Below, piece after piece: positions 1,812 through 20,976 of a stretch of 20,976 bases of DNA. The DNA is taken from positions 1 to 20,976 of the forward strand of contig JBHLRQ010000053.1 in assembly GCA_048882385.1 (NCBI GenBank), read 5' to 3'. Numbering within the stretch: the stretch's first letter is position 1; each line of letters starts with the position of its first letter. Source of the stretch: Candidatus Thorarchaeota archaeon. GTDB lineage: Archaea; Asgardarchaeota; Thorarchaeia; Thorarchaeales; Thorarchaeaceae. The position numbers were made by a program, and so were the translations under genes. The notes beneath the pieces were generated by a model that saw only the letters and a list, made by a program, of their open reading frames with translations, was not told where the DNA came from and ran no database searches.

Positions 1812-2777
1812 ATGTCGCGATTGAAAATGAAAGAGTGTGTGGTTGTCACAGGAGCAGCAGGTTTCATCGGTAGTCATCTTTCAGACCATTTGTTGGAACA
1901 GGGATACAAGGTCATTGGTATTGACAACATGAGAACAGGATTGATGCGAAATGTTGAAAGAGCAGTAGAAAATGCGAGTTTTGAACTAATGGAAGAGGAT
2001 GTTTGTAATCCATCCTTGAAGGACAAAATCGAGGAAAAAGTCGACATCATCTTTCATTTCGCCGCGATATCATCAGTGAAACTATCTATTGTAGATCCAT
2101 TCCTTGTACATGAGGTCAATGTTGAAGGTACTCTCAATATGCTAGATTTTGCCACAGAGAAAGGAGCATCGAGGTTCATACTTGCCTCAAGCGCTGCAGT
2201 CTATGGAAATCCTACTTCATTACCAGTTACCGAAAATTCGCCTGTATATCCTCTTAGCCCCTATGCAGCATCAAAACTCTCTGCTGAGATGTATTCTCTA
2301 GCCTTCGGAGAATCCTATTTGGTGAATCCAACTATCCTCAGATATTTCAATGTCTATGGTCCACGACAAGAAAATTCAGAATATAGTGGAGTGATCCCAA
2401 TTTTCATCAGTCAGGCACTCACTGACTCGCCCCTTACAATTGATGGCGATGGCTCACAGACTCGAAGTTTTATTCATATTGACGATGTAGTAAAAGCAAC
2501 CCTACTAGCAGCTCGGAATCCAGAAACAAGATTTCAAACATTGAATGTTTCTGGAACGGAGTCCACAAGCATACTCGAACTTGCACACCTCATCAAGAAT
2601 TATACTCCAGAATCAGATTCTGAAATCGTCTACAGGCCACCGAGGAAAGGTGATGTGAAGGATAGCATCGGGAGTATTGACAAGCTGTCAAAGCTCCTAA
2701 ATTTCACTCCCGAGGTGTCCCTTGAAACTGGACTCGATCGTACAGTTTCTTGGTATGAGCTAAATATGTCTACGTGA
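1812..2777 (+). CDS. NAD-dependent nucleotide-sugar epimerase/dehydratase (UDP-glucose 4-epimerase-like extended SDR)
   Basis: TGAAGFIGSH Rossmann motif, SSAAVYG, YAASK (YxxxK), RYFNVYGP, RSFIHIDD. The start could instead be the ATG at 1827. Confidence 0.9.
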   Translation: MSRLKMKECVVVTGAAGFIGSHLSDHLLEQGYKVIGIDNMRTGLMRNVERAVENASFELMEEDVCNPSLKDKIEEKVDIIFHFAAISSVKLSIVDPFLVHEVNVEGTLNMLDFATEKGASRFILASSAAVYGNPTSLPVTENSPVYPLSPYAASKLSAEMYSLAFGESYLVNPTILRYFNVYGPRQENSEYSGVIPIFISQALTDSPLTIDGDGSQTRSFIHIDDVVKATLLAARNPETRFQTLNVSGTESTSILELAHLIKNYTPESDSEIVYRPPRKGDVKDSIGSIDKLSKLLNFTPEVSLETGLDRTVSWYELNMST

Positions 2778-5700
2778 CTGTCAAGAGCAGGTTGATTTGA
2801 TCCATTACTCCTTCTTCAGTGCGAAGGATGATCTGTACAAGATACTGCGCTAGTACTATTCCTGTCGGTAAGTAGACTGTGACCTTTGGTGATGTGCCAT
2901 AGAGGTCTCCAGGTCCTACATCTCCTATATCCAAGGTGAATGTACTGTTAGAGGGATAGACTGTTGGGACTACGTCAGAGCCATGCCAATTGATTGAGAA
3001 GTTACCAGTTGCTGTCACAATGTCGAGACTCAAATTATGACTCACATCGTCATTGTTTCGTAACAAAGTGACAAGGCTAGTAAATTCGCCAGAATCTACT
3101 GTCAAAGGACTGAACACAACACTCTCAAACCCAACTTCTCCTACCTCCACTATCGTCTGGTTCAGTAGACCAAACATCTTGTAGTAGGCTTCGACCACAC
3201 TCTCACCAAGTTCTACACGGTCTCCAGTTTTGACATCTACAAGTCCTACACCACCAAGCTTCTGAATGACTCGATTGACTGAAGTTTCAACCTCAAGAAA
3301 GACTGGGATGACAAAGAACAGGTCTCCGCCGAGGTGATACAACAAGCGGTTTCCATACCTGTGTTCACCCCATAGTTGTAGCTGCGTACGTACAACGTCA
3401 TTCGTTTCGAATGCCTGAATTGCTGCATTTGGTCCTAGCCAATTGGAATACCCTGTTTCACCTGCCTTATAGAACGTAAAACGACCGAAATCCTTGTCGC
3501 CACACCCCATGATATAGATGCCTGCGAGGTTATGGGCCTCTGAGAAGCGAAACTCAGCATTGTGATAGGCAACGAACCGTTCCTCACCTTCAATGTTCAT
3601 AATCACATATCTAGTGTCAGAATCTGTCGGACTCTGATGAAAGTCGACTCCTGATCTCCACTGTTCACCATTACTGACGTGGTAATAGTATGCGGTTTCG
3701 AGCTGACGTTCATAGAGGTCCTCTGGCCACTTCAACTGAGCTTGGAGCCAAGAAGGCATCTCTTGCCAGTCGTAATAGTTCTTGTATGTGTTATCTAGAA
3801 AGAGACCATCGTCAGCTACGGGAGACTCGAAGAATTCGATATCGCCATTCTCAATGTCAACAAGCGCTACACCCATGAATCGTAAGTAGTTTTCATGAGC
3901 ATAGCCAGTTGCGAGATGATAGTCAATGAAGATAGATACTGCATAGTATAGATCTCCTGTTGGGCTTATTACAATATATGGATCATTATCAATATTGAGA
4001 CCTTGAAGGAGAATGTTCTCCACTCTTGTTAGAACATTTCGCTCTACTAGCATATCCATATCTCTACCAAGATACGACCATGCATCAGGACCCATTGTGA
4101 GTATGTAGAAGAATGACTCGAAGCCGCTCAATGTATAATCAGGAGTACCATCAAATGATGTATTTCCAACCTCTTGAAAGTTCGGAACATTGACGAACAC
4201 CACATCATGGAAACCAGCACCTTCACCATAGTAGAAATTGATATCCTCGGTGCGGTTGAATAGAGCGACCAAGGCATCGTCTTCAACCAGCTCACCGCTG
4301 AAAGCATCAAGTACCACAAGACCTTCAGTATGAGTATAGAGAATTCGTTGGCTGATGAAACTAGTCCATGTTGCTCCAACCTCAAAGGTCAATGGTGCAA
4401 TCCAGTATTCATGGCCTTTTAGATACACAATGTCTGAGTCTGCTAACTGCATCCAGTTCGTACCTATTTGATTCCGCATCCGCAAATAACTCGCTGTTTG
4501 ATCCCACTGCCGTACTGTTGTCAGCGACTCTACCTCACTTTCAGGCGTCGCGTTTAATATCAAATCATCTAACGTTTTTTCTTCAAAACCATCGAGTCCA
4601 GCTGCCCAGTTAGTAATCTCGATCTCTTTTGTTGTCTGAAGGTTGAACTTCCAATCTATGTAGCGATCTCCTTCCATTTGGATTCCATAGTAGAATCCTT
4701 GAATAAGAGGCAGTGCAATAACAATCACAATTAGGAAACCAGCTACCAAAGCAAAAGACCTCTGGGACCCTCCAATGGGAATGAGCCTTTCAAGTTTCAA
4801 ACGACGGAGCTCGTTCGCAATGTTCACACGGTCTTCCATCAAAAGATTGACTCTTTTTCGATAGTCCTCAGCTGATATCGCACCTGCCTCATACTCTTGA
4901 CGAAGAGAGAGCAGCTCGCCCTGTAGACGGGCAAGGTCTCCTTCGAGGGAGGCAATCTTACTCTTGAGGCGTTGTCGAACATCTCCTGAACGTACTCTTA
5001 CAACCATAAAAACCACAGATCCAGCAAGACTAGCTCCTAGGGCAATGAGTAATGCAAGATAACTCATCCAAGTACCAGCATTAACTGTCCACATTGGAAC
5101 ATTGAGGATTTCCAAGCCTAAAGCGAGAGCGACAACAAGCAAACCTTTCGAAATGATTACAAAGATGTCACGTCTCTGGAGCATGAGGTCTGTGATGATA
5201 CCAAAGACTAGTCGGGCTGCTGTAGCAACGAGAATTGTTGAGATGAGTCCGACATAGAGCTGATACGCCTCCATGGCTGGAATCAGACTCTGAATAGAAG
5301 CGGCTGAAGTTCCTGGAGCAAATGGAAGCGAAAACATTGTTGCCAATTGTCCAGGTGTTATGGATATCGACCCATCGCCCATCAACATCATCAAGAATGC
5401 TACATTTTGACCAGTGATAGAATATCCGCCAGTGGATACATAGTATAGGAAGAATGCTCCTATCTCAAATAACCTCCAGACTATTCCAGTCTTGATATCA
5501 AGGGTCTTTAGATGGGTTCCAGTCTGGGAGAGCGCAGATATGAAGGACAAAAATGTTGAACGTGTCCAAAGAGTAAAGACACTACTCAAAAGTGCTAGGA
5601 GCAGCGAGGCAGTGAAGATATTGTTATTCAATGTCCATGTAGCCCAGAAGTTTACATCAGACTTGGTTTGATACGCAGAAATGTAGATTGTCTGACCGAG

Positions 5701-5784
5701 TACCCAGCCATAGGTCGTTGCTGCAATGAGCGTTCCTACGATTGCGATGATTGTTAGAATAATGATCATTCTTAGATACTTCAT
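2770..5784 (-). CDS. UPF0182-like large membrane protein (multi-TM N-terminus, large extracytoplasmic domain)
   Basis: 1004 aa with several N-terminal hydrophobic helices. Motifs VRQWD, YTHTEG, FYYGEG, DNDPYIV, NYLR, LKWPEDL...YYYHV, GNRLLY and LFFVIPVFLE resemble UPF0182 family hallmarks (recognised from memory, not from a search). Confidence 0.75.
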   Translation of the reverse strand: MKYLRMIIILTIIAIVGTLIAATTYGWVLGQTIYISAYQTKSDVNFWATWTLNNNIFTASLLLALLSSVFTLWTRSTFLSFISALSQTGTHLKTLDIKTGIVWRLFEIGAFFLYYVSTGGYSITGQNVAFLMMLMGDGSISITPGQLATMFSLPFAPGTSAASIQSLIPAMEAYQLYVGLISTILVATAARLVFGIITDLMLQRRDIFVIISKGLLVVALALGLEILNVPMWTVNAGTWMSYLALLIALGASLAGSVVFMVVRVRSGDVRQRLKSKIASLEGDLARLQGELLSLRQEYEAGAISAEDYRKRVNLLMEDRVNIANELRRLKLERLIPIGGSQRSFALVAGFLIVIVIALPLIQGFYYGIQMEGDRYIDWKFNLQTTKEIEITNWAAGLDGFEEKTLDDLILNATPESEVESLTTVRQWDQTASYLRMRNQIGTNWMQLADSDIVYLKGHEYWIAPLTFEVGATWTSFISQRILYTHTEGLVVLDAFSGELVEDDALVALFNRTEDINFYYGEGAGFHDVVFVNVPNFQEVGNTSFDGTPDYTLSGFESFFYILTMGPDAWSYLGRDMDMLVERNVLTRVENILLQGLNIDNDPYIVISPTGDLYYAVSIFIDYHLATGYAHENYLRFMGVALVDIENGDIEFFESPVADDGLFLDNTYKNYYDWQEMPSWLQAQLKWPEDLYERQLETAYYYHVSNGEQWRSGVDFHQSPTDSDTRYVIMNIEGEERFVAYHNAEFRFSEAHNLAGIYIMGCGDKDFGRFTFYKAGETGYSNWLGPNAAIQAFETNDVVRTQLQLWGEHRYGNRLLYHLGGDLFFVIPVFLEVETSVNRVIQKLGGVGLVDVKTGDRVELGESVVEAYYKMFGLLNQTIVEVGEVGFESVVFSPLTVDSGEFTSLVTLLRNNDDVSHNLSLDIVTATGNFSINWHGSDVVPTVYPSNSTFTLDIGDVGPGDLYGTSPKVTVYLPTGIVLAQYLVQIILRTEEGVMDQINLLLTVT

Positions 5785-5867: not shown

Positions 5868-6365
5868 TCAGAGCAGATGCTTCTGGCTCCTTAGTGCAAA
5901 GGAGTTCCCATCAATTGCGCGCATAACTGCGAGTATGCCATCTAAGTGGTCATACTCGTGTTGAAGCAATTCGGAGAGATCATCTTCTAGATCTAATGTC
6001 TGTGGTTCCCAATTCAAGTCTCGATATTCAACCGTGCAGCGTTTGTGGCGTCGAACACGGACGAGAAGATCTGGAAAACACATGCAGTCGTCCCAGAGTT
6101 CAATCAGTTCTTTGCTCTTGTTCTTCAATTTGGGATTCAGAAATACTACAGGATCGTCAATGTGCATGTAGATGATTCGTTTCATGACCCCTATCTGAGG
6201 AGCGGCAATTGCCCTACCCACTCCGTATTCCCTTCGAAAGTTCATCATTGTGTCATGGAGATCATGGATAACCTGCCTTGTTATTTCTAACTCAGAAGCA
6301 TCAACTTCGTCAGACAACTTGTATAACTGAGGGTTTCCAAGCTTCAAAATCTCTCGAATCGTCAT
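5868..6365 (-). CDS. def: Peptide deformylase-like protein
   Basis: ILKLGNPQL, GRAIAAPQIG (motif 1), FLNPK, DDCMCFP (variant of motif 2 EGCLS), QHEYDHLDGIL (HExxH motif 3). Confidence 0.88.
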   Translation of the reverse strand: MTIREILKLGNPQLYKLSDEVDASELEITRQVIHDLHDTMMNFRREYGVGRAIAAPQIGVMKRIIYMHIDDPVVFLNPKLKNKSKELIELWDDCMCFPDLLVRVRRHKRCTVEYRDLNWEPQTLDLEDDLSELLQHEYDHLDGILAVMRAIDGNSFALRSQKHLL

Positions 6366-6443: not shown

Positions 6444-7271
6444 ATGGCACGACCAATGTGGTTTGTCAAACTACTGAAGAAGACATTCCCAAATAGGGGG
6501 CTCATTGCGAAGGCAACAAACATTCCCCTAATTGGAAGAATTGTAGACAAGATGCTCTTTGAGGGTGATGACATCATCTATTTGCCTAAAGATAGCGTTA
6601 CCCAAAAGACCATTCAGATCAATCAGCAGCTCGAAAGACCAGTAGAAACAGCTCTCCCATCAGAGATTGTTCATCACTTCATTGAGAAGGCCAAGGACCA
6701 CTGGATTATGGATTTTTGTATCTGTCGAGATTCTTCCAAGTGTAAGGACTACCCAATCAAGTATGGCTGTCTCTTTATGGGAGAGGCGATAGAGGGCATT
6801 AATCCTAAATTAGGCCGGCGCGTTACAAAAGAAGAAGCACATGAGTACGCGAGGAAATGTCGCGAGGCTGGTCTTGTTCACTTGATTGGACGTAACAAGC
6901 TTGATGCAGAATGGCTAGGCGTATCTCCCGGTGACAAGTTGTTGACTGTCTGTAATTGCTGTCCCTGTTGTTGCCTATGGAAGATTCTACCTGATTTGAA
7001 CCCTGAGATTGGTAGGAAAGTGACCAAGATGACAGGAGTTCATGTTGAAGTCACAGATGATTGTGTTGGTTGTGGAACCTGTGCAGAAGGTGTATGTTTC
7101 GTTGATGCAATCTCTCTGGTGGATGGAAGATCTGTTATTTCAAACCAGTGCCGAGGTTGCGGCAGATGTATCGAGGTCTGTCCAGAGTCAGCTATCAAAA
7201 TGACAATTGACAACTCACGTTTTGTTGAAGATACTATTGAGAGAGTTGCTTCCGTCGTAGATGTCGAGTAG
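6444..7271 (+). CDS. Cys-rich 4Fe-4S dicluster (ferredoxin-domain) protein
   Basis: CICR...C..YP...GC and CNCCPCCC, plus C-terminal CVGCGTCAEGVC and CRGCGRCIEVCP ferredoxin motifs. Confidence 0.88.
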   Translation: MARPMWFVKLLKKTFPNRGLIAKATNIPLIGRIVDKMLFEGDDIIYLPKDSVTQKTIQINQQLERPVETALPSEIVHHFIEKAKDHWIMDFCICRDSSKCKDYPIKYGCLFMGEAIEGINPKLGRRVTKEEAHEYARKCREAGLVHLIGRNKLDAEWLGVSPGDKLLTVCNCCPCCCLWKILPDLNPEIGRKVTKMTGVHVEVTDDCVGCGTCAEGVCFVDAISLVDGRSVISNQCRGCGRCIEVCPESAIKMTIDNSRFVEDTIERVASVVDVE

Positions 7272-7310
7272 AATCTTCAGGGCTAATCCAGACCCATTTG
7301 ACACATTTTT

Positions 7311-7326
7311 CAGAAACAATAATATA
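7311..7326 (+). promoter_or_regulatory. Putative BRE/TATA promoter of tupABC
   Basis: Purine-rich CAGAAACA followed by ATAATATA (7319-7326), about 60 bp upstream of the tupA ATG. Confidence 0.45.
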
Positions 7327-7348
7327 GGGAGTGTCAGAGAACCACGAC

Positions 7349-7372
7349 CGATATGTCTGTTGAAACATATCG
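7349..7372. promoter_or_regulatory. ModE-box-like palindromic operator upstream of tupA
   Basis: CGATATGT-N8-ACATATCG: perfect 8-bp inverted arms, 24 bp in total, ending 12 bp before the tupA ATG. It resembles the ModE consensus CGnTATATA-N6-TATATAnCG. Confidence 0.7.
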
Positions 7373-7384
7373 AGGCTAATATCT

Positions 7385-8383
7385 ATGCGTAGAGAAATGA
7401 GATTGGCAGCTGTTGCTATGGTAATCATAGCTTTGTTTGTAGGCACGGGTTTCGCATTCTATTGGATCCAGACTCAAAATAGAGAAACTCTAGTGATATC
7501 AACAACGACCAGTCTCTATGATACAGGTCTTCTCGATTTGATGAAGGAGAGATATGAGCAAGAGCATCCTAATGTCATTCTTGCATTCATTTCTGCGGGA
7601 ACAGGGATTGCAATAACACATGCCATGAATGGTGACGCGGACATGATCCTTGTTCATTCACCATCTCAAGAATACGCATTCATGAATGTAGGCTTTGGAG
7701 TAAACAGGAAGATTTTCGCATACAACTACTTCACAATTGTAGGACCTTCTAATGACATGGCTAGTATAAATCAGACGGACCCAATAACAGCATTGCAATC
7801 AATTTACAGCTATGGGCAGTCTCACAATACTAGTCTATGGGTCAGCCGTGACGATCTTTCGGGTACAAACTCAAAAGAGATAGCCCTCTGGACTGCTGCT
7901 GGATACAACTACACTGAACTGAAAGATTTGCCATGGTTTTTGTCCTCAGGAGCAGGCATGGGTTCAACTCTCAATATTGCAAATGAGCAATCATTGTATA
8001 CATTGTCTGATATTGGCACATATCTAAAGTATCGAGCTGATGAATTGATATCACTACATCAACTTGTTGAAGAGGGACAAGACCTTCTAAATGTGTATTC
8101 TGCAATTCCTGTGAACAGAAGCACTGTCAGTTCCGTGAGGTTTGAACTAGCGATGGAATTTCTTCAATGGCTTGTAAGTCCATCAGTACAGCAGGCAATA
8201 GCAGACCATGGCGTCACAGAATATGGACAGGGCCTTTTCTTCCCAGCAGTTGACATTCTTGAGACCGAGTCACCACCCCAGATCTTTGGATGGATAAGAG
8301 ATTATGCGTTCTTTGATTATGGAGGTGCGTTATACGAATGCCCTCCAATATGGCAGTCTGGTGATTATGGGCTTTATGGCTAA
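7385..8383 (+). CDS. tupA: Tungstate ABC transporter substrate-binding protein
   Basis: N-terminal TM anchor, STTTSLYDTGLLD (TTTS motif), GTGIA, GDADMILVHSP, YNYFTIVGP, SRDDLSGT, GMGSTL, YTLSDIGT, LLNVYS. Confidence 0.9.
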   Translation: MRREMRLAAVAMVIIALFVGTGFAFYWIQTQNRETLVISTTTSLYDTGLLDLMKERYEQEHPNVILAFISAGTGIAITHAMNGDADMILVHSPSQEYAFMNVGFGVNRKIFAYNYFTIVGPSNDMASINQTDPITALQSIYSYGQSHNTSLWVSRDDLSGTNSKEIALWTAAGYNYTELKDLPWFLSSGAGMGSTLNIANEQSLYTLSDIGTYLKYRADELISLHQLVEEGQDLLNVYSAIPVNRSTVSSVRFELAMEFLQWLVSPSVQQAIADHGVTEYGQGLFFPAVDILETESPPQIFGWIRDYAFFDYGGALYECPPIWQSGDYGLYG

Positions 8384-8421
8384 AAGGATAGGTAAAATCA
8401 GAATAGAGGATGAGATAAGAA

Positions 8422-9084
8422 ATGACGGTTGAAAGCGATCTTGTACAAATAACTCTGCAAAGTCTCTTCATATCAGGGTCTGCAGCGCTCTTGGCTTCTG
8501 CAATTGGACTACCTATTGGCCTTTTTCTAGGCCTCAAGAAATTTAGAGGACGGTCAATCATTGTTGGAGGATTCAATTCACTGATGGGTTTACCAACTGT
8601 CGCTCTTGGGCTTGTTCTCTATCTGACATTTTCAAATGCAGGACCACTAGGATTTCTCGATTTGCTCTATACTCCAGCGGGCATCATCGTTGGTCAGACC
8701 ATTTTGGTAATTCCAATAATGATCAGTATCACAACTGAAACCATCACGAGCGTTGACGATTCAATAAGAGAACTGGCTCTTACTCTCGGAGCAGATGAAA
8801 AGGCTGCAGCTTTCTCAGTTGTTCGCGAATCAGTTGGTGGAATCATGCTAGCGGGTTCAGCAAGTTTTAGTAGGGCAATTGCTGAGCTTGGTGTTGCTCT
8901 CATGATTGGGGGCAACATCAAAGGGCTGACAAGAATCCTTACAACATCAATTGCTCTTGAAACAACAAGGGGAGAGATAGCTCTTGGTCTTGGGCTCATG
9001 ATAATCCTACTTGTACTAATTCTCTTCGTGAATACAGGTCTTGGTGTGCTTCGAAAAAGGGTTCAGTGGTGGTTATGGGAATAA
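8422..9084 (+). CDS. tupB: Tungstate ABC transporter permease
   Basis: Hydrophobic protein with MGLPTVALGL, GPLGFLDLLYT, ALTLGA, FSRAIAELGVALMIGGNIKGLTRILTTSIALET. Confidence 0.92.
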   Translation: MTVESDLVQITLQSLFISGSAALLASAIGLPIGLFLGLKKFRGRSIIVGGFNSLMGLPTVALGLVLYLTFSNAGPLGFLDLLYTPAGIIVGQTILVIPIMISITTETITSVDDSIRELALTLGADEKAAAFSVVRESVGGIMLAGSASFSRAIAELGVALMIGGNIKGLTRILTTSIALETTRGEIALGLGLMIILLVLILFVNTGLGVLRKRVQWWLWE

Positions 9085-10148
9085 TTCAGCTAGAGAATGT
9101 GGGAGTGTTTTTTGGTGCTCTGAAGGCACTTGACGACGTAAGCTTCTCAATCAATGAAGGAGAGAGGTTTTCAATCATCGGTCCTAATGGTGCAGGAAAA
9201 ACTACTGCTCTGAGAGTCATTGCTGGTCTGTTGAAACCTTCTGAAGGAGAAGTGTTGTTTCATGACAAACTCATTACAGAAACCAATCGGCAAGACCTCA
9301 GAAGACAGGCTCCGTTGGTTTTTCAGAAGCCCACTCTTTTCAACACTACCCTATTCAAGAATGTAGCTTATGGATTGAGAATTCGAGGTATTGCGGAGAA
9401 ACAAGTGAAAAGAACTGTATTGGAAACCCTTGAACTTGTCCAGCTAACCGATCTTAAGGACAGACTCGCTAAGAACTTGTCAGGTGGTGAACAACGACGA
9501 GCCTCGCTAGCAATGGCAATCGCCCTAGACACAGAACTATTACTTGTAGATGAGCCAACAGCCTACCTAGATAATGAGAGCGCGGAGATTGTTGAAGCCA
9601 CATTAATGCGTCTTAACTCAGAAAGAGGAACAACAATTGTGATGGTCACACATAATTTTCTGCAGGCAGAGGTACTGGCAAATAGAGCCGCAATACTTCA
9701 GCATGGGAGAATATCAAAGATTGGAACTGTTGGTGAGATTTTCAGATCAGAATTGGAAGGGCTTCTTCAAGACGAGTACAAGAGCAATACTTTCTCAGGT
9801 GTGGCAAGATCTAGTAGCGAACAGGATCAAGGGAGAAAACTTGTCACTATTGAGCTTGAAAACGGGGTGACTATCGAAGCGCTTGGCAAAGTATTGGGAA
9901 ATGTGACAGCCTATATTCCGCCCCAAGACATCATAATTTCACGAGAAGTTGTTCTCTCAAGTGCCCGAAACTGTCTATTGGGAAAAGTGACCAGAATACA
10001 AACCCGCGAGTCTACTGCCCTATTGACAGTGGATGTTGGTGTAGAATTTTTAGTCCAAATAACCAACACATCCAAAGATCGACTCGATATTTCGGTCGAT
10101 GATGAAGTCTATGTGACCTTCAAAGCATCTTCTGTGAGAATCTTCTGA
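9075..10148 (+). CDS. tupC: Tungstate/molybdate ABC transporter ATPase with C-terminal TOBE domains
   Basis: Walker A GPNGAGKT, signature LSGGEQ, Walker B LLLVDEPT, H-loop VTHN, and a C-terminal SSARN...FKASSV TOBE/mop motif. The ATG at 9075 is preferred over the GTG at 9066. Confidence 0.88.
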   Translation: MGIIQLENVGVFFGALKALDDVSFSINEGERFSIIGPNGAGKTTALRVIAGLLKPSEGEVLFHDKLITETNRQDLRRQAPLVFQKPTLFNTTLFKNVAYGLRIRGIAEKQVKRTVLETLELVQLTDLKDRLAKNLSGGEQRRASLAMAIALDTELLLVDEPTAYLDNESAEIVEATLMRLNSERGTTIVMVTHNFLQAEVLANRAAILQHGRISKIGTVGEIFRSELEGLLQDEYKSNTFSGVARSSSEQDQGRKLVTIELENGVTIEALGKVLGNVTAYIPPQDIIISREVVLSSARNCLLGKVTRIQTRESTALLTVDVGVEFLVQITNTSKDRLDISVDDEVYVTFKASSVRIF

Positions 10149-10158
10149 ATAGTCATGA

Positions 10159-10180
10159 GATTTGTAGTGGATTTGTAGTG
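10159..10180. repeat. Exact 11-bp tandem direct repeat (GATTTGTAGTG x2)
   Basis: 10159-10169 and 10170-10180 are identical and lie in the tupC-moaA intergenic region. Confidence 0.85.
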
Positions 10181-10181
10181 T

Positions 10182-10205
10182 CGATATGCATGATAGAACA
10201 TAACA
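10182..10205. promoter_or_regulatory. Second ModE-box-like operator upstream of moaA
   Basis: CGATATGCATGATAGAACATAACA is 17/24 identical, without gaps, to the tupA palindrome. A TATA-like TTATTAT follows at 10207-10213. Confidence 0.62.
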
Positions 10206-10239
10206 CTTATTATCGCGAATCAATCTAGCGCGTAGGAAC

Positions 10240-11229
10240 ATGTCTACTCACAAGCCCGCACATGCAGATTCAGAGAACTGTGTTTCAGAGGAGCAATGTT
10301 ATGTCGATAGATTTGGAAGACATATCGATAACCTACGGATATCTCTGACACAGGATTGCTGTTTTTCATGTTTCTTTTGCCACAAAGAAGGCGAAGACCA
10401 TGCTAGAAGGGAGATATCAGCTGAACAGATAGAGCGAATTGTCAAACATGCGAGTAGACATGGCGTGCATAATGTGAAGCTAACAGGAGGAGAGCCACTC
10501 CTACGAAAAGATATCCTCGACATCATCAGAAGGATTTCACCTCACGTTTCGGATCTTTCGATAACAACTAATGGTGTCTTTTTGGATGAAATGTCAGAAG
10601 ACCTCAAGGAGGCAGGTCTTACACGAGTGAATGTAAGTATCCATTCCCTAGAATCAGAAACATACTACAGAATTACTGGTTTTGATGAACTGGAAAGAGT
10701 CAAACGAGGTATCAAGCGTGCTATCGATGTAGGTCTTTCTCCAGTGAAGATTAACATGACTATCCTCCGAGGGTACAATGAGGACAGTATTGCGGACCTT
10801 ATGGGATTTGCATCGGAGATGGGAGCAATACTTCAGATTATTGAGCTTCAGCAGATTCCGGGAGTAGATTCAAGTAGTCAAATGGATCTTTGGGTTGATT
10901 TGGGACCTCTTGAGGAGAGTCTTAGAGAACGAGCAATCAAGACTGAAAAACGAAGGACACAAAGTCGATACCAATACACGATTGCCCTTGGTTCACAACG
11001 AAGTGTAGTTGTAGAAATTGTACGTCCGATGTATAATGCAGCCTTCTGTGATGAATGCACACGGTTACGAGTGACATCAGATGGTAAATTGAAACCCTGT
11101 TTGTACAGATTGGACAATATGATTGAGGTTTTTTCCTGTGGAGACCAGACTAGTACCATAGATACAGTTGAGCTAGCGTTTGAACAAGCTGTATCCAACA
11201 GAGAACCGTATTGGAGAGAGGATCGCTGA
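10240..11229 (+). CDS. moaA: GTP 3',8-cyclase (radical SAM)
   Basis: DRFGR..NLRISLT, CxxxCxxC (CCFSCFFC), KLTGGEPLLR, TTNG, RVNVS, FCDECTRLRVTSDGKLKPCL, and an archaeal-type C-terminus REPYW without the GG tail. Confidence 0.95.
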   Translation: MSTHKPAHADSENCVSEEQCYVDRFGRHIDNLRISLTQDCCFSCFFCHKEGEDHARREISAEQIERIVKHASRHGVHNVKLTGGEPLLRKDILDIIRRISPHVSDLSITTNGVFLDEMSEDLKEAGLTRVNVSIHSLESETYYRITGFDELERVKRGIKRAIDVGLSPVKINMTILRGYNEDSIADLMGFASEMGAILQIIELQQIPGVDSSSQMDLWVDLGPLEESLRERAIKTEKRRTQSRYQYTIALGSQRSVVVEIVRPMYNAAFCDECTRLRVTSDGKLKPCLYRLDNMIEVFSCGDQTSTIDTVELAFEQAVSNREPYWREDR

Positions 11230-11630
11230 TTCGTATTACCGAGGATGATTTTCAAATTGACCAAGTTGTAGCACATACAAGAAAACCATCAATGGGATGT
11301 CTTGTTCTATTCCTTGGAACTGTCAGAGACATGACAGAGGGAAAGGCAGTCCAACGAATTCATCTTGAGGCAGATGAAGAAGAGGCGGTCATGCAGCTTG
11401 AGCAGATTCGGAATGAAGTCATAGATGAATTTGGAGTGACTGATGTTTCAATCATACACAGAGTTGGTACTCTTGAGGTGGGTGAGAATATAGTCATCAT
11501 AGCTGTCGGAGCAGGGCATCGTCCAGAAGCGTTTGCTGGTTGCCGTCATGCTATCGAACGGTTGAAGGAATTCGTCCACATTTGGAAGAAGGAGTTCACT
11601 CAATCTGACGAATATTGGGTTGGTGATTGA
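11211..11630 (+). CDS. moaE: Molybdopterin synthase catalytic subunit
   Basis: GCLVLFLGTVRD, HRVGTLEVGE, HRPEAF, IERLK..VHIWKKE. The start is uncertain (TTG 11211 or CTG 11226). Confidence 0.93.
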   Translation: MERGSLIRITEDDFQIDQVVAHTRKPSMGCLVLFLGTVRDMTEGKAVQRIHLEADEEEAVMQLEQIRNEVIDEFGVTDVSIIHRVGTLEVGENIVIIAVGAGHRPEAFAGCRHAIERLKEFVHIWKKEFTQSDEYWVGD

Positions 11631-11633
11631 ACT

Positions 11634-12089
11634 ATGGATGAGAAAAAACAGTCTATCAGAATGGTAGATGTTTCGGGAAAGAACATGGTGAAACGCTATG
11701 CTGAAGCTGTTGGAAACATAGTTCTTCAGCCTGAAACAATAACCAAGATTAGAGATGGAACTACGAAGAAAGGGAATGTACTTGCAGTCGCTGAAACTGC
11801 AGGGATACTTGCTGCTAAGCACACCTCTGATTCAATACCTTTGTGTCATCAGATTCCACTAACATCAGTCGAGATTGGATTTGAGTTCGCTAAAACTGGA
11901 ATCCAAGCCACATGTAGAGTTTCAGCAATATACCTGACTGGGGTGGAGATGGAAGCACTCACGGGGGTTACGATAGCATTACTCTCAATCTGGGACATGG
12001 TCAAATATCTGGAGAAGGATTCAGAGGGACAATATCCTCATGCCAGACTCGAAAACATTAGAGTTACAATGAAGAGGAAAGGTGAATAG
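11634..12089 (+). CDS. moaC: Cyclic pyranopterin monophosphate synthase
   Basis: MVDVSGK, KKGNVL, AGILAAK, IPLCHQI, TGVEMEALTG, IWDMVK. Confidence 0.96.
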   Translation: MDEKKQSIRMVDVSGKNMVKRYAEAVGNIVLQPETITKIRDGTTKKGNVLAVAETAGILAAKHTSDSIPLCHQIPLTSVEIGFEFAKTGIQATCRVSAIYLTGVEMEALTGVTIALLSIWDMVKYLEKDSEGQYPHARLENIRVTMKRKGE

Positions 12090-12092
12090 GTA

Positions 12093-12590
12093 ATGGATGA
12101 GCATAGGCGAGACCAGAGAGTTGAGGCTGGTTTTGCTGTATTGATTGTAAGCGATAGCAGAACGAAAGAAACTGATAAGTCTGGGAAGATAGCAATTGAG
12201 TTGCTTGAAGCAGAGGGTCACAAAACGATTGCGTATGATATTGTAAAGAATGATAGTCAGGCAATTGGGGAAGCAGTTAGAGTATATGCGGCAAATCCTG
12301 ACATAAGAGTGATTCTTACCAGTGGCGGAACAGGTGTGAGCAGTAAGGACCTCACGGTTGCTACTGTTGCTCCGATGTTTGATGAAACACTTCCAGGATT
12401 TGGTGAGTACTTCAGAAAGCTGAGTTTCGATGAAATAGGAATTGCAGGCATATTTAGTCGGTCTACTGCAGGTTTGATTGAAAACAAGGTCACATTTTGT
12501 CTTCCAGGGTCTAAGAATGCAGTTCGAACCGCTCTCACCAAGATCATCTTACCAGGAATTGGACACTTACTCTGGGAGGTGGATAGATGA
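12093..12590 (+). CDS. moaB: Molybdopterin adenylyltransferase MoaB/MogA family
   Basis: VSDSR...DKSG, TSGGTG...DLT, LPGFGEYFR, SRSTAG, FCLPGS. Confidence 0.93.
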   Translation: MDEHRRDQRVEAGFAVLIVSDSRTKETDKSGKIAIELLEAEGHKTIAYDIVKNDSQAIGEAVRVYAANPDIRVILTSGGTGVSSKDLTVATVAPMFDETLPGFGEYFRKLSFDEIGIAGIFSRSTAGLIENKVTFCLPGSKNAVRTALTKIILPGIGHLLWEVDR

Positions 12591-13801
12591 AAGGGATGGA
12601 GCCATTCAGCCTTCTTGTTTCACACGAGGAGGCATTAGAACACATTCTATCAAGTGCAAAGGAGATCGAACGCATCGAAAACATCGATGTTAGTGAAGCA
12701 GTTGGACGTGTCTTGGCTGAAGACATAATTGCAGATAGATCTGTACCCCCTTTTGATAGGTCAGCAATGGACGGCTATGCTGTGGTTGCAGAAGACACCT
12801 TCAATGCAGGACATGAAGAAGTACTTCTTGAAGTGGATGGAGTCATACACGCAGGCGAGATTTCAGAGGTCGAAGTCACTTCGGGCCATTGCGTGCAGAT
12901 AGCCACAGGTTCACCAAAACCATCTGGGGCAGATGCTGTAGTGATGGTGGAGTTTACAGAGAAGAAGGGGAACAGAGTCTTAGTCACAAAGCCTGTCCAT
13001 CCAGGAGCGAACATATCCAAGTTAGGCGAGGACATCAAAAAGGGAGATGTTGTCCTCAAAAAAGGAGTGCATTTGACTCCTTCAAAGATTGGAACATTAT
13101 CAGCCTTAGGGATAACCGGCGTTGACGTGTATGAGAAACCAAGAGTCAGTGTCATTCCTACAGGTACAGAAATCGTTCAACCAGGGCAGCAATTAAGTCC
13201 AGGTCAAATCTATGACGTGAACTCATTCACACTTGAGGCCATTCTCAGAAAGAATGGGGCTATTGTTCAAAGGAAACCAATCATTACTGATGATCGCCAA
13301 TTGCTAAAGGAGGGAATTGAAAAGGCCCTGGAGTCAGACATGGTCGTTCTGTCGGGAGGTAGTTCAGTTGGAGAGAAGGACCTACTTGCAGGGATCTTAG
13401 AGGACCTTGGTCAAGTACTCTTTCATGGTGTACAAATAAAACCCGGAAAACCCACGTTATATGGAATAATTCAAGGAAAACCAATCTTCGGTATGCCTGG
13501 ATTTCCAACATCATGCCTTAGTAATGCACATGTTTTCCTCGTTCCTGCAATTAGAAAGATGGCCAGACTACCAAGTGGCAAAGAGAGGATTGTAAAAGCG
13601 AAGATGGGAAAACGAATCGTTTCATCATCAGGTCGGAAACAATTCTTGACCGTTCGCATAGAGAACGGCGTGGCATACCCAGTCTTCAAACATTCTGGCG
13701 CTATTACAAGCATGGCACAGGCTGATGGATATATCATGTTACCAGTCAATCTAGATGTAATTGAAGAGGGAGAGGAAATTGAAGTCGTCTTATTAGACTG
13801 A
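12587..13801 (+). CDS. moeA: Molybdopterin molybdenum/tungsten transferase
   Basis: GRVLAED, PPFDRSAMDGYAV, IATG..P.GADAVVMVE, GEDI, TGTE, SGGSSVG, IKPGKP, GMPGFP, SGAITS...ADG. ATGA overlap with moaB. Confidence 0.96.
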   Translation: MKGMEPFSLLVSHEEALEHILSSAKEIERIENIDVSEAVGRVLAEDIIADRSVPPFDRSAMDGYAVVAEDTFNAGHEEVLLEVDGVIHAGEISEVEVTSGHCVQIATGSPKPSGADAVVMVEFTEKKGNRVLVTKPVHPGANISKLGEDIKKGDVVLKKGVHLTPSKIGTLSALGITGVDVYEKPRVSVIPTGTEIVQPGQQLSPGQIYDVNSFTLEAILRKNGAIVQRKPIITDDRQLLKEGIEKALESDMVVLSGGSSVGEKDLLAGILEDLGQVLFHGVQIKPGKPTLYGIIQGKPIFGMPGFPTSCLSNAHVFLVPAIRKMARLPSGKERIVKAKMGKRIVSSSGRKQFLTVRIENGVAYPVFKHSGAITSMAQADGYIMLPVNLDVIEEGEEIEVVLLD

Positions 13802-19371: not shown

Positions 19372-20976
19372 TCATGACGAATTACCAAACTTTCGATTCA
19401 GTAGTATAACTGCTGATGTAGCTCCAATGCCTACTATGGCCAATGTCGCCATTGCTAAGATAATGCTGGATGCTTCTATTCTAAGCTCCACAATTACCAG
19501 AACCTGATCAATTGCGATGTTTGCAAATGCATCGTAAAATACAATGGTAATATTCCAAACTCCAATCGAAGCTGGAACGAATACAAAGCTGATGTCAGAG
19601 CCATACCACCAATTAGTTTCTACAAGAGTAGAGTTGACATAGATCTCGTAGTTCCAAGGAGTTGCATCAAAGGCAGACCAGTTTAGTATCGTGCTCACAT
19701 CACTCATGTACATCCATATGTCATCAGGGTGGTCTATCGCGGGGGGGTCGCTGTCACTTGGAGGTTCATTATAGTGGAGAGCTTCGATTGCGTCGAGTTC
19801 TACTATGTCACCCATGAACAACTCAATCCGTACATATCGGACATACTCAAGCCCTGTACCAGAGATATCGAAACTCTTTGTCCCCGAGAAAACACCTAAA
19901 GATTGAGCTGGGATAAAGAATGACTCACTCACTATAATCTCATATTCATCTCCCTGTGCGAATACTGTAAAATCTGCACCAGCTCCATCGATTATCTCTT
20001 CATTCTCGCCCATATCAAGTGTCAGATATCCGTTCTCGTAGTCAATGTATATTTCAGTGAATATTCCATCAGGTGCTCCGATTGAATTCTCGCCAAACAG
20101 ATACCACTTACACCGATTGGGTACAAGTGCATCTGCATATGGGTCGCCTTGATCAACCACAATTGTCACAAAAATCGTATCAACTGCAGATTGTCCATCA
20201 AGAAAGAGAACCAATGTGAGGTTATATTCTCCAGGTCTCCAACCTTCTGATCTCCAATCAGTAATTGGGACTTCGACAAATTCGCCTGCAATTTCACCTT
20301 GAGCAAATGTGTGACCATTCTTAAGAACTATCCAGTCAGTACCGCCAAAGACCTCCCAAGTGAATAATACATCAATCGAACCCCAGAGAAGTGTAGAATT
20401 TCCAGGAGAGGAGAGGATATGCGGACTTGTCGGAGGATGAACGGTTAGTGAAGTCTGACTATAGGTTACAAGTCCCTGTAGGTCTTCGACAACGAGCGTG
20501 ATATTGTAGACTCCAGCACGTAATAATGGCACATCCCAATCAATCCTATGAGTAGGGGGAGTCCACGTATCTTCAGCAGTGAGTGATTCATTAACATATA
20601 GACTCCAGGAGGTCCCACTCGCATCAAAGAGATTCCAAGATAGAGTCATTGCAGAACTCCAGTATGTTTCAAGAGTCAGTGGTTGCAGCGGTTCAATGAC
20701 CGGAGGTTCTTCAGGATAGACGTTGAGCCAGAAGGAGTCATCAAAGACATTCGTTGTGCCATTGTAGAGATGCATCTCAACAAAATGCGACCCAAGAGGA
20801 ATCAGTTCCGGATCAAGTATGATGTCAGTGCCATTCCAGTCAAATGACATGAAGATAGTCCCATTGAGTGATATATTGCAGGCAAGAGGGTCTAATGTGT
20901 CACCACTCCAAGTAGGCAGTTGATCATATTGACCCCTTTCAATTGTTGTGAGCCCACTTCGTTCTATGTGGAAATT
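19372..20976 (-). CDS. Membrane-anchored cell-surface protein with repeated Ig-like beta domains; N-terminus lies beyond the window
   Basis: The frame stays open upstream of the track start (20850) to the window end (NFHIERSGLTTIERGQYDQLPTWSGD...). Repeated units of about 85-90 aa (W...Y/W.(I/L)..N....W......G.(Y/W)N.T.V..D), many NxS/T sequons, and a C-terminal TM helix with a short basic tail. Confidence 0.8.
   Translation of the reverse strand, partial: NFHIERSGLTTIERGQYDQLPTWSGDTLDPLACNISLNGTIFMSFDWNGTDIILDPELIPLGSHFVEMHLYNGTTNVFDDSFWLNVYPEEPPVIEPLQPLTLETYWSSAMTLSWNLFDASGTSWSLYVNESLTAEDTWTPPTHRIDWDVPLLRAGVYNITLVVEDLQGLVTYSQTSLTVHPPTSPHILSSPGNSTLLWGSIDVLFTWEVFGGTDWIVLKNGHTFAQGEIAGEFVEVPITDWRSEGWRPGEYNLTLVLFLDGQSAVDTIFVTIVVDQGDPYADALVPNRCKWYLFGENSIGAPDGIFTEIYIDYENGYLTLDMGENEEIIDGAGADFTVFAQGDEYEIIVSESFFIPAQSLGVFSGTKSFDISGTGLEYVRYVRIELFMGDIVELDAIEALHYNEPPSDSDPPAIDHPDDIWMYMSDVSTILNWSAFDATPWNYEIYVNSTLVETNWWYGSDISFVFVPASIGVWNITIVFYDAFANIAIDQVLVIVELRIEASSIILAMATLAIVGIGATSAVILLNRKFGNSS

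Follow-up and report, generated by a model that had tools for sequence, protein, structure and literature searches.

The stretch of DNA analysed here (20,976 nt, hereafter the window) is contig JBHLRQ010000053.1 of a Candidatus Thorarchaeota archaeon and carries, on the forward strand, a gene cluster for oxyanion uptake and pterin cofactor biosynthesis. An initial annotation, made from the sequence alone, had proposed that two similar 24-bp palindromes before tupA and moaA are operators of a ModE-like regulator of tungstate or molybdate metabolism, and these two elements are the subject of the present analysis. The uptake genes comprise a tupA-like gene for a periplasmic oxyanion-binding protein of 332 aa (7385..8383, + strand; PF12849, 101.6 bits), a tupB-like gene for a permease of the ATP-binding cassette (ABC) type (8422..9084, +; PF00528; NF038017, 190.9 bits; NF041773 TupB, 136 bits vs a cutoff of 320) and a tupC-like gene for an ABC ATPase with a C-terminal TOBE domain (9066..10148, +; PF00005 and, at residues 298-358, PF03459). 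The sole NCBIfam match of the TupA-like protein was NF041772 TupA with 162 bits, which is under the equivalog cutoff of 400 bits, and the top NCBIfam match of the ATPase was WtpC with 251.8 bits vs a cutoff of 440. Relatives of the TupA-like protein are named 'tungstate transport system substrate-binding protein' by the Joint Genome Institute (JGI). Downstream follows a pterin cofactor biosynthesis operon (10240..13801, +; Pfam matches) consisting of moaA (10240-11229; NF001199 with 377 bits and TIGR02668 with 365.8 bits, both over the cutoff), moaE (11211-11630), moaC (11634-12089), a MoCF_biosynth gene that is moaB/mog-like (12093-12590) and moeA (12587-13801), all on the + strand. At the family level of Pfam and NCBIfam, the genes had been named correctly in the initial annotation. 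The nearest TupA relatives (79-84% identity) belong to metagenome-assembled genomes of Thorarchaeota/Promethearchaeota, and in a FastTree of 78 TupA rows the window fell within a clade of 24 rows from Thorarchaeota/Promethearchaeota with a support of 99. Because both the relatives and the tree place the window with this group, the label Asgard-like that had been given to the DNA is borne out.

The cluster contains only two non-coding gaps, one 5′ of tupA (7272-7384) and one between tupC and moaA (10149-10239), and one of the 24-mers lies in each of them. The element before tupA, CGATATGTCTGTTGAAACATATCG (7349..7372), is a perfect 8/8 palindrome, its arms at 7349-7356 and 7365-7372 being 8 nt long, 100% complementary and separated by a gap of 8 nt. 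In the element before moaA, CGATATGCATGATAGAACATAACA (10182..10205), the left half is a full match, while the right half reads CATAACA. Counted position by position, the two elements are identical at 17 of 24 positions. The coordinates, the identity, the perfect arms and the placement in the two promoter-like gaps were therefore all as first described. Between the tupA element and the tupA ATG lie 12 nt, and the final base of this element also belongs to a Shine-Dalgarno-like tetramer GAGG (7372-7375); the moaA element occupies positions -58 to -35, counted from the moaA ATG. Within the window alone, a search for the palindrome pattern with up to 3 mismatches returned just these 2 sites vs 0.76 expected, and 2 matches were also reached in 12 of 100 shuffles, so that this is a weak test.

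For a stronger comparison, 80 related loci (designated by L numbers) were obtained from one scan of genome contigs with the TupA alignment, in which at most 13 kb were seen per genome. They comprised a Thor-type clade of 24 loci (L001-L023 and L026), while the rest were mostly from Bathyarchaeia and some from Archaeoglobi, with additionally one locus labelled Heimdallarchaeota, two from Hecatellales and one labelled Patescibacteria. The pattern CGWTATG-N10-CATAWCG, with up to 2 mismatches allowed, had 108 occurrences (34 perfect, 44 with one mismatch and 30 with two) over the 80 loci and the window, together 846,796 nt. It was located 5′ of tupA in 79 of the 80 loci, across Asgard archaea, Bathyarchaeia and Archaeoglobi, the sole locus without a tupA-upstream site being L033. 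In 74 loci the site was found at -260 to +40 of the tupA open reading frame (ORF) call; in five others (L044, L046, L063, L066 and L071) it lay 33-135 nt 5′ of the start of the tblastn match, within an over-long tupA ORF call. A site 5′ of moaA was present in 23 of the 26 loci with moaA and absent in L006 and L007, in both of which moaA is the last gene of a longer cluster, as well as in L031. Conservation in orthologous promoters, for which the initial annotation had proposed to look, is thus found at both genes.

A position weight matrix of 24 columns (28.3 bits) was built from the 74 orthologous tupA-upstream sites, with the window left out. The tupA and moaA elements of the window scored 27.0 and 26.5 bits, respectively, and the third-best position in the window 2.4 bits. 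In 200 windows simulated with a first-order Markov model, the maximum per window was 6.4 bits on average and 18.0 bits at the highest. Over the 80 loci and the window, 107 of the 109 positions that scored at least 12 bits were located 5′ of either tupA or moaA; the two off-target matches lay in L007 at 10631, inside moeA, and in L021 at 524.

Apart from single sites, operator pairs spaced 25-27 nt from start to start were observed 5′ of tupA in L021 (5855/5882), L049 (5937/5964), L063 (5869/5894), L072 (144/169) and L073 (85/110). The pair in L021 sits between divergent moaA and tupA genes, which would mean one box per promoter. An archaeal-type tupA preceded by the operator is also found on the contig of L066, for which the label is 'Patescibacteria group bacterium'; this TupA groups on a long branch with rows from Bathyarchaeia, and the contig is probably mis-binned. 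Two further repeats are located near the moaA element of the window. An 11-nt unit, GATTTGTAGTG, is present as a perfect tandem duplicate at 10159-10180 and ends one base 5′ of the moaA operator; no such tandem repeat was found in the matching stretch of L001-L005. Inside the moaA coding region, at 10305-10327, a near-palindrome of 23 nt with operator-like half-sites and a spacer shorter by one base was noticed by eye; it is not a matrix match and lies over codons for the conserved N-terminus of MoaA.

The regulator to which these sites could belong was sought by ORF clustering over all loci, and the resulting profile was subsequently used in a six-frame search. A protein of about 185 aa with a winged helix of the HTH_1 type (PF00126) and one TOBE domain (PF03459) is encoded beside tupABC in 49 of the 80 loci; the window itself, for whose sites the initial annotation had supposed a regulator encoded elsewhere, is without such a gene. 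In most loci from Bathyarchaeia this modE gene is divergent from tupA and the box lies in the common gap (30 such intergenic sites), and in L006, L007, L027, L043, L050, L057, L058, L064 and L071 it is located downstream of tupC. L006 and L007 have the gene order tupABC-modE-Mop-moaB-moeA-...-moaA, and their TupA proteins lie inside the 24-row clade of the window as sister (support 85) to its six-row subclade. The ModE-type profile matched Escherichia coli ModE (PDB 1b9m) with E=5e-31 over profile positions 31-189, covering the DNA-binding domain and the first Mop domain. Against TIGR00638 Mop, two of three ModE-like proteins scored 54-59 bits, around the cutoff of 55, and ModE-type relatives are labelled 'molybdate transport system regulatory protein' by the JGI.

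Several small proteins accompany modE or the transporter genes in these loci. Proteins of one ORF cluster (cluster 4; L054 4790-5341 and 26 other loci), about 183 aa long, combine an N-terminal Mrr_cat/restriction-endonuclease-like domain with the C-terminal domain of RNA polymerase Rpb5, that is, they represent RpoH/Rpb5 with an extra N-terminal domain; their genes adjoin modE in 27 loci, mostly from Bathyarchaeia. A conserved ORF of 74 aa (cluster 6; L070 8840-9064 and 20 other loci) is located directly past tupC on the opposite strand; with a weak match to HTH_24 (E=0.0024) as its sole match, it may encode a small DNA-binding protein tied to the transporter. Moreover, stand-alone Mop/TOBE proteins of 70 aa are encoded directly 3′ of modE in L006 (9363-9575), L007 (9365-9577) and L062 (4420-4635) and could serve as oxyanion-binding or storage partners of a single-Mop regulator.

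The sites were also compared with an archaeal ModE whose DNA binding is described. According to PMC12327845, ModE of Methanosarcina acetivorans has one Mop domain only, its gene lies downstream of a molybdate/tungstate ABC transporter, and it binds the motif RTTATGT-N8-RCATAAY in gel shifts, with binding abolished by mutation or deletion of the half-sites. The same source reports that ModE represses anf and vnf in vivo, that the motif also occurs 5′ of the molybdate ABC transporter and fmd genes of M. acetivorans, and that Studholme and Pau had already predicted the motif in 2003. Over their inner 22 nt, the tupA site and the moaA site each agree with 12 of the 14 specified positions of this motif at the same spacing. 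Among the 74 orthologous sites, the exact published form is represented by T at position 3 in 23 and by A at position 22 in 56, and the flanking C and G were conserved in 57 and 69 of them, respectively. Owing to the fit at 12 of 14 positions and to the many orthologous sites that are exact, the element in the window is identified as the archaeal ModE box, with an additional C and G conserved at its flanks.

The two systems share a palindrome with a TATG/CATA core and the same half-site spacing, a box located 5′ of Mo/W ABC transporters, a regulator composed of a winged helix-turn-helix and a single Mop/TOBE domain (as in the proteins beside tupA in 49 related loci) and a regulator gene that can follow the genes for the transporter (seen in L006, L007, L027 and L043). 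They differ in that the window-type box also keeps the flanking C and G and has A or T as the second base of the half-site where the M. acetivorans box has T, in that the transporter is TupABC-like instead of ModABC/WtpABC-like and the moaA operon is also a target, and in that one organism is a methanogen while the other belongs to an Asgard lineage and has no regulator gene near the sites. With the E. coli system (ModE structures 1b9m and 1o7l) the sites have in common a regulator family with homologous DNA-binding and Mop domains, a palindromic operator of about 24 bp and, according to PMC12327845, a regulon that couples oxyanion uptake with moa genes; the promoters differ, being archaeal (TATA box and B recognition element, BRE) in the window and of the sigma-70 type in E. 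coli. Set beside the E. coli consensus cited in the initial annotation, the M. acetivorans motif is the nearer one for comparison.

The two sites exist, are conserved, are tied to ModE genes in relatives and match a motif bound experimentally by an archaeal ModE. Judged from the sequences, the two 24-bp elements are with good probability operators of a dimeric ModE-family regulator with a winged helix-turn-helix and one TOBE/Mop domain. The first proposal of a ModE-like operator is supported by the conservation at tupA in 79 of 80 loci, by the neighbouring modE in 49 and by the match to the motif validated in gel shifts. Binding in the Thorarchaeota organism itself, the metal sensed, the direction of control and the transcription start sites are inferred.

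A number of results weigh against this assignment. No ModE gene was found in the 20,976-nt window, and for 22 of the 24 Thor-clade loci the six-frame profile search gave no modE up to about 6 kb from tupA. Among 39 matches of a single-query ModE search no protein was named Thorarchaeota, and neither was any among the 120 ModE-family profile matches listed (the best 120 of 2983), the nearest named Asgard match among those listed being a protein from Baldrarchaeia with 50% identity to the ModE of L007. The ModE-like proteins scored 69-79 bits against TIGR00637 ModE_repress, below the NCBIfam cutoff of 98.5, and relatives have degenerate left half-sites before moaA (CGAAATG, CGACATG, CGAGCTG). 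Additionally, PMC12327845 reports that molybdate left the DNA affinity of M. acetivorans ModE unchanged in vitro and that the purified protein contained no Mo, for which reasons direct metal sensing by a single-Mop archaeal ModE is itself unproven.

The position of the sites relative to predicted promoter elements bears on the direction of control. At tupA, a TATA-like heptamer TAATATA (7320..7326, + strand), predicted to be part of the tupA promoter, is located 22 nt 5′ of the operator. Of 25 Thor-clade rows, the window counted among them, 16 have a heptamer of the form T[AG]A[AT]AT[AT] 11-22 nt 5′ of the tupA site, and a conserved block, aaacagtaaaatag, is further evidence for the TATA-like heptamer. 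The site ends 8-14 nt 5′ of the start codon in 19 of these 25 rows. A start site about 25 nt past the TATA box would lie within the operator, a position from which archaeal repressors usually block the polymerase. As the tupA box lies downstream of the TATA-like element and over the expected start site, repression of tupABC is suggested. Each monomer of ModE would read one CGWTATG half-site, the 10-bp spacer setting the distance between the half-site centres, and the dimer bound at tupA would sit over the expected start of transcription and obstruct RNA polymerase, so that tungstate/molybdate uptake would be repressed at a sufficient supply of the oxyanion.

At moaA the order is reversed. A T/A-rich octamer, CTTATTAT (10206..10213, + strand), abuts the operator, lies 26 nt 5′ of the moaA ATG and is a predicted TATA box. 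An in-frame ATG follows the moaA site after 32-36 nt in 23 of 23 loci (33-34 nt in 17), and the bases in between are not conserved; the constant spacing together with the unconserved intervening bases is consistent with the TATA box of a leaderless moaA mRNA. A dimer bound here would overlap the position of the BRE. The layout of an operator followed by a TTAT box is found at tupA itself in L010, L012, L013, L015, L018 and L021, and because these six related loci use it at a gene for which repression is expected, we lean, by analogy, towards repression of moaA by an operator-bound dimer as well.

One alternative is that the regulator represses tupABC and activates moaA, following a logic like that of E. 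coli in which the cofactor is made only when the metal is available. Archaeal activators can work from sites upstream of the TATA box, and the moaA operator, at -58 to -35, is such a site with respect to the TATA-like box. Its right half overlaps the expected position of the BRE, and the layout shared with tupA in the six loci does not favour activation either. An activator function of archaeal ModE was not ruled out by the authors of PMC12327845, according to which M. acetivorans ModE has so far been shown only as a repressor. Activation of moaA is, on balance, regarded as possible but doubtful.

A second alternative concerns the identity of the protein that binds. In Thorarchaeota, a DNA-binding protein unrelated to ModE could have taken over the ancestral operator after the loss of modE, and the missing modE, both in the window and around tupA in the 22 Thor-clade loci, would fit such a replacement, as would the missing Thorarchaeota name among the ModE-family matches listed. 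The absence from the neighbourhood says little when no more than 13 kb are visible per genome, and a missing label is weak evidence given that most proteins in the database are unnamed. Moreover, the half-sites are identical to those of the 49 loci that carry modE, and L006 and L007, whose TupA proteins fall in the Thor clade, have modE within the cluster. A replaced reader is for these reasons considered improbable.

The palindrome could also act as RNA, namely as a hairpin in the tupA leader that controls translation or stability next to the ribosome-binding site. The tupA copy can indeed form a perfect stem of 8 bp (-8.8 kcal/mol), which reaches to the GAGG preceding the start codon. Its fold is ordinary (z = -1.70; equalled or bettered by 11 of 200 shuffles), the moaA region folds no better than shuffles (z = +0.91), and the leaderless start predicted for moaA is downstream of the moaA copy. 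There is no covariation between arm positions 3 and 22: A is the commonest base at position 3 (50 of 74 sites) as well as at position 22 (56 of 74), from which it follows that at least 32 of the 74 sites carry an A/A mismatch there, and in all 23 moaA sites C1 is opposite A24. A hairpin function is consequently very improbable. The Moco (molybdenum cofactor) riboswitch of Rfam is comparable in exerting upstream control of molybdate/tungstate transport and cofactor genes and different in being a bacterial structured RNA. In the window no Rfam match was found at the gathering threshold, nor in 7200-10400 at E values up to 1, and the arms of the element are without covariation. Finally, a chance likeness of two 24-mers in an AT-rich intergenic background, which the two matches of the loose pattern in 12 of 100 shuffles might have suggested, is refuted by the scores of the independent matrix far above the best simulated value, by the specificity of 107 in 109 positions and by the orthologous sites at moaA as well as tupA, and its probability is regarded as negligible.

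With the two elements taken as ModE operators, the finding represents a known and experimentally validated kind of operator, seen in a lineage from which it had not previously been described, and not a new system. The full-text literature, with supplements and most subscription journals outside its scope, yielded no account of a ModE regulon for Asgard archaea or Bathyarchaeia, and for archaea generally it gave only PMC12327845; likewise, the passages found in PMC6147048, PMC7997004, PMC9246946 and PMC13144720, supplements excluded, contain no such description. This agrees with the statement in the initial annotation that no regulon of this type was known from the lineage, the element itself being known in Archaea. 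The picture of how ModE systems work is unchanged by it. In a more far-reaching reading, the tupA ModE box, shared by Asgard archaea, Bathyarchaeia and Archaeoglobi, would rank among the most widely conserved archaeal regulator-operator pairs, with two promoter geometries in Thorarchaeota and with either one sensor that represses uptake and activates cofactor synthesis or, given the missing modE near the cluster in 22 of 24 Thor-clade loci, a reader other than a canonical ModE; this is considered unlikely.

Asgard archaea are nearly all uncultured, and very few pairs of transcription factor and operator can be confidently assigned there. The present case supplies an operator defined to 24 bp, a candidate family of regulators and, for each of two target promoters, a predicted TATA box and start site, by which the control of trace metals (W/Mo) in Thorarchaeota becomes directly testable. 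Furthermore, the matrix can be used for genome-wide prediction of the regulon, e.g. at aor, fdh and fwd genes, and the 79 of 80 species-level loci with a site constitute a clean data set on the placement of operators relative to archaeal core promoter elements.

Further observations were made on other genes of the window and its relatives. On the reverse strand, an ORF of 492 aa (19372-20850) has no match in Pfam or NCBIfam, and a protein of 1004 aa (2770-5784) has a partial match to UPF0182 only. A protein of 275 aa is encoded directly 5′ of the tupA gap (6444-7271, + strand); its C-terminal 70 residues form a two-cluster ferredoxin domain, its first approximately 190 residues are without a family match, and it is kept directly 5′ of tupA in L001 and L003 only. 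Upstream of it, a homologue of peptide deformylase (5868-6365, - strand; PF01327, 133.7 bits) is present in this Asgard-type archaeon and has the same neighbours in L001 and L003. Within the cofactor operon, moaE and moaC, which are separate genes in the window, are fused to one gene of about 290 aa in five Thor-clade loci, namely L010, L012, L013 (9848-10732), L015 and L018.

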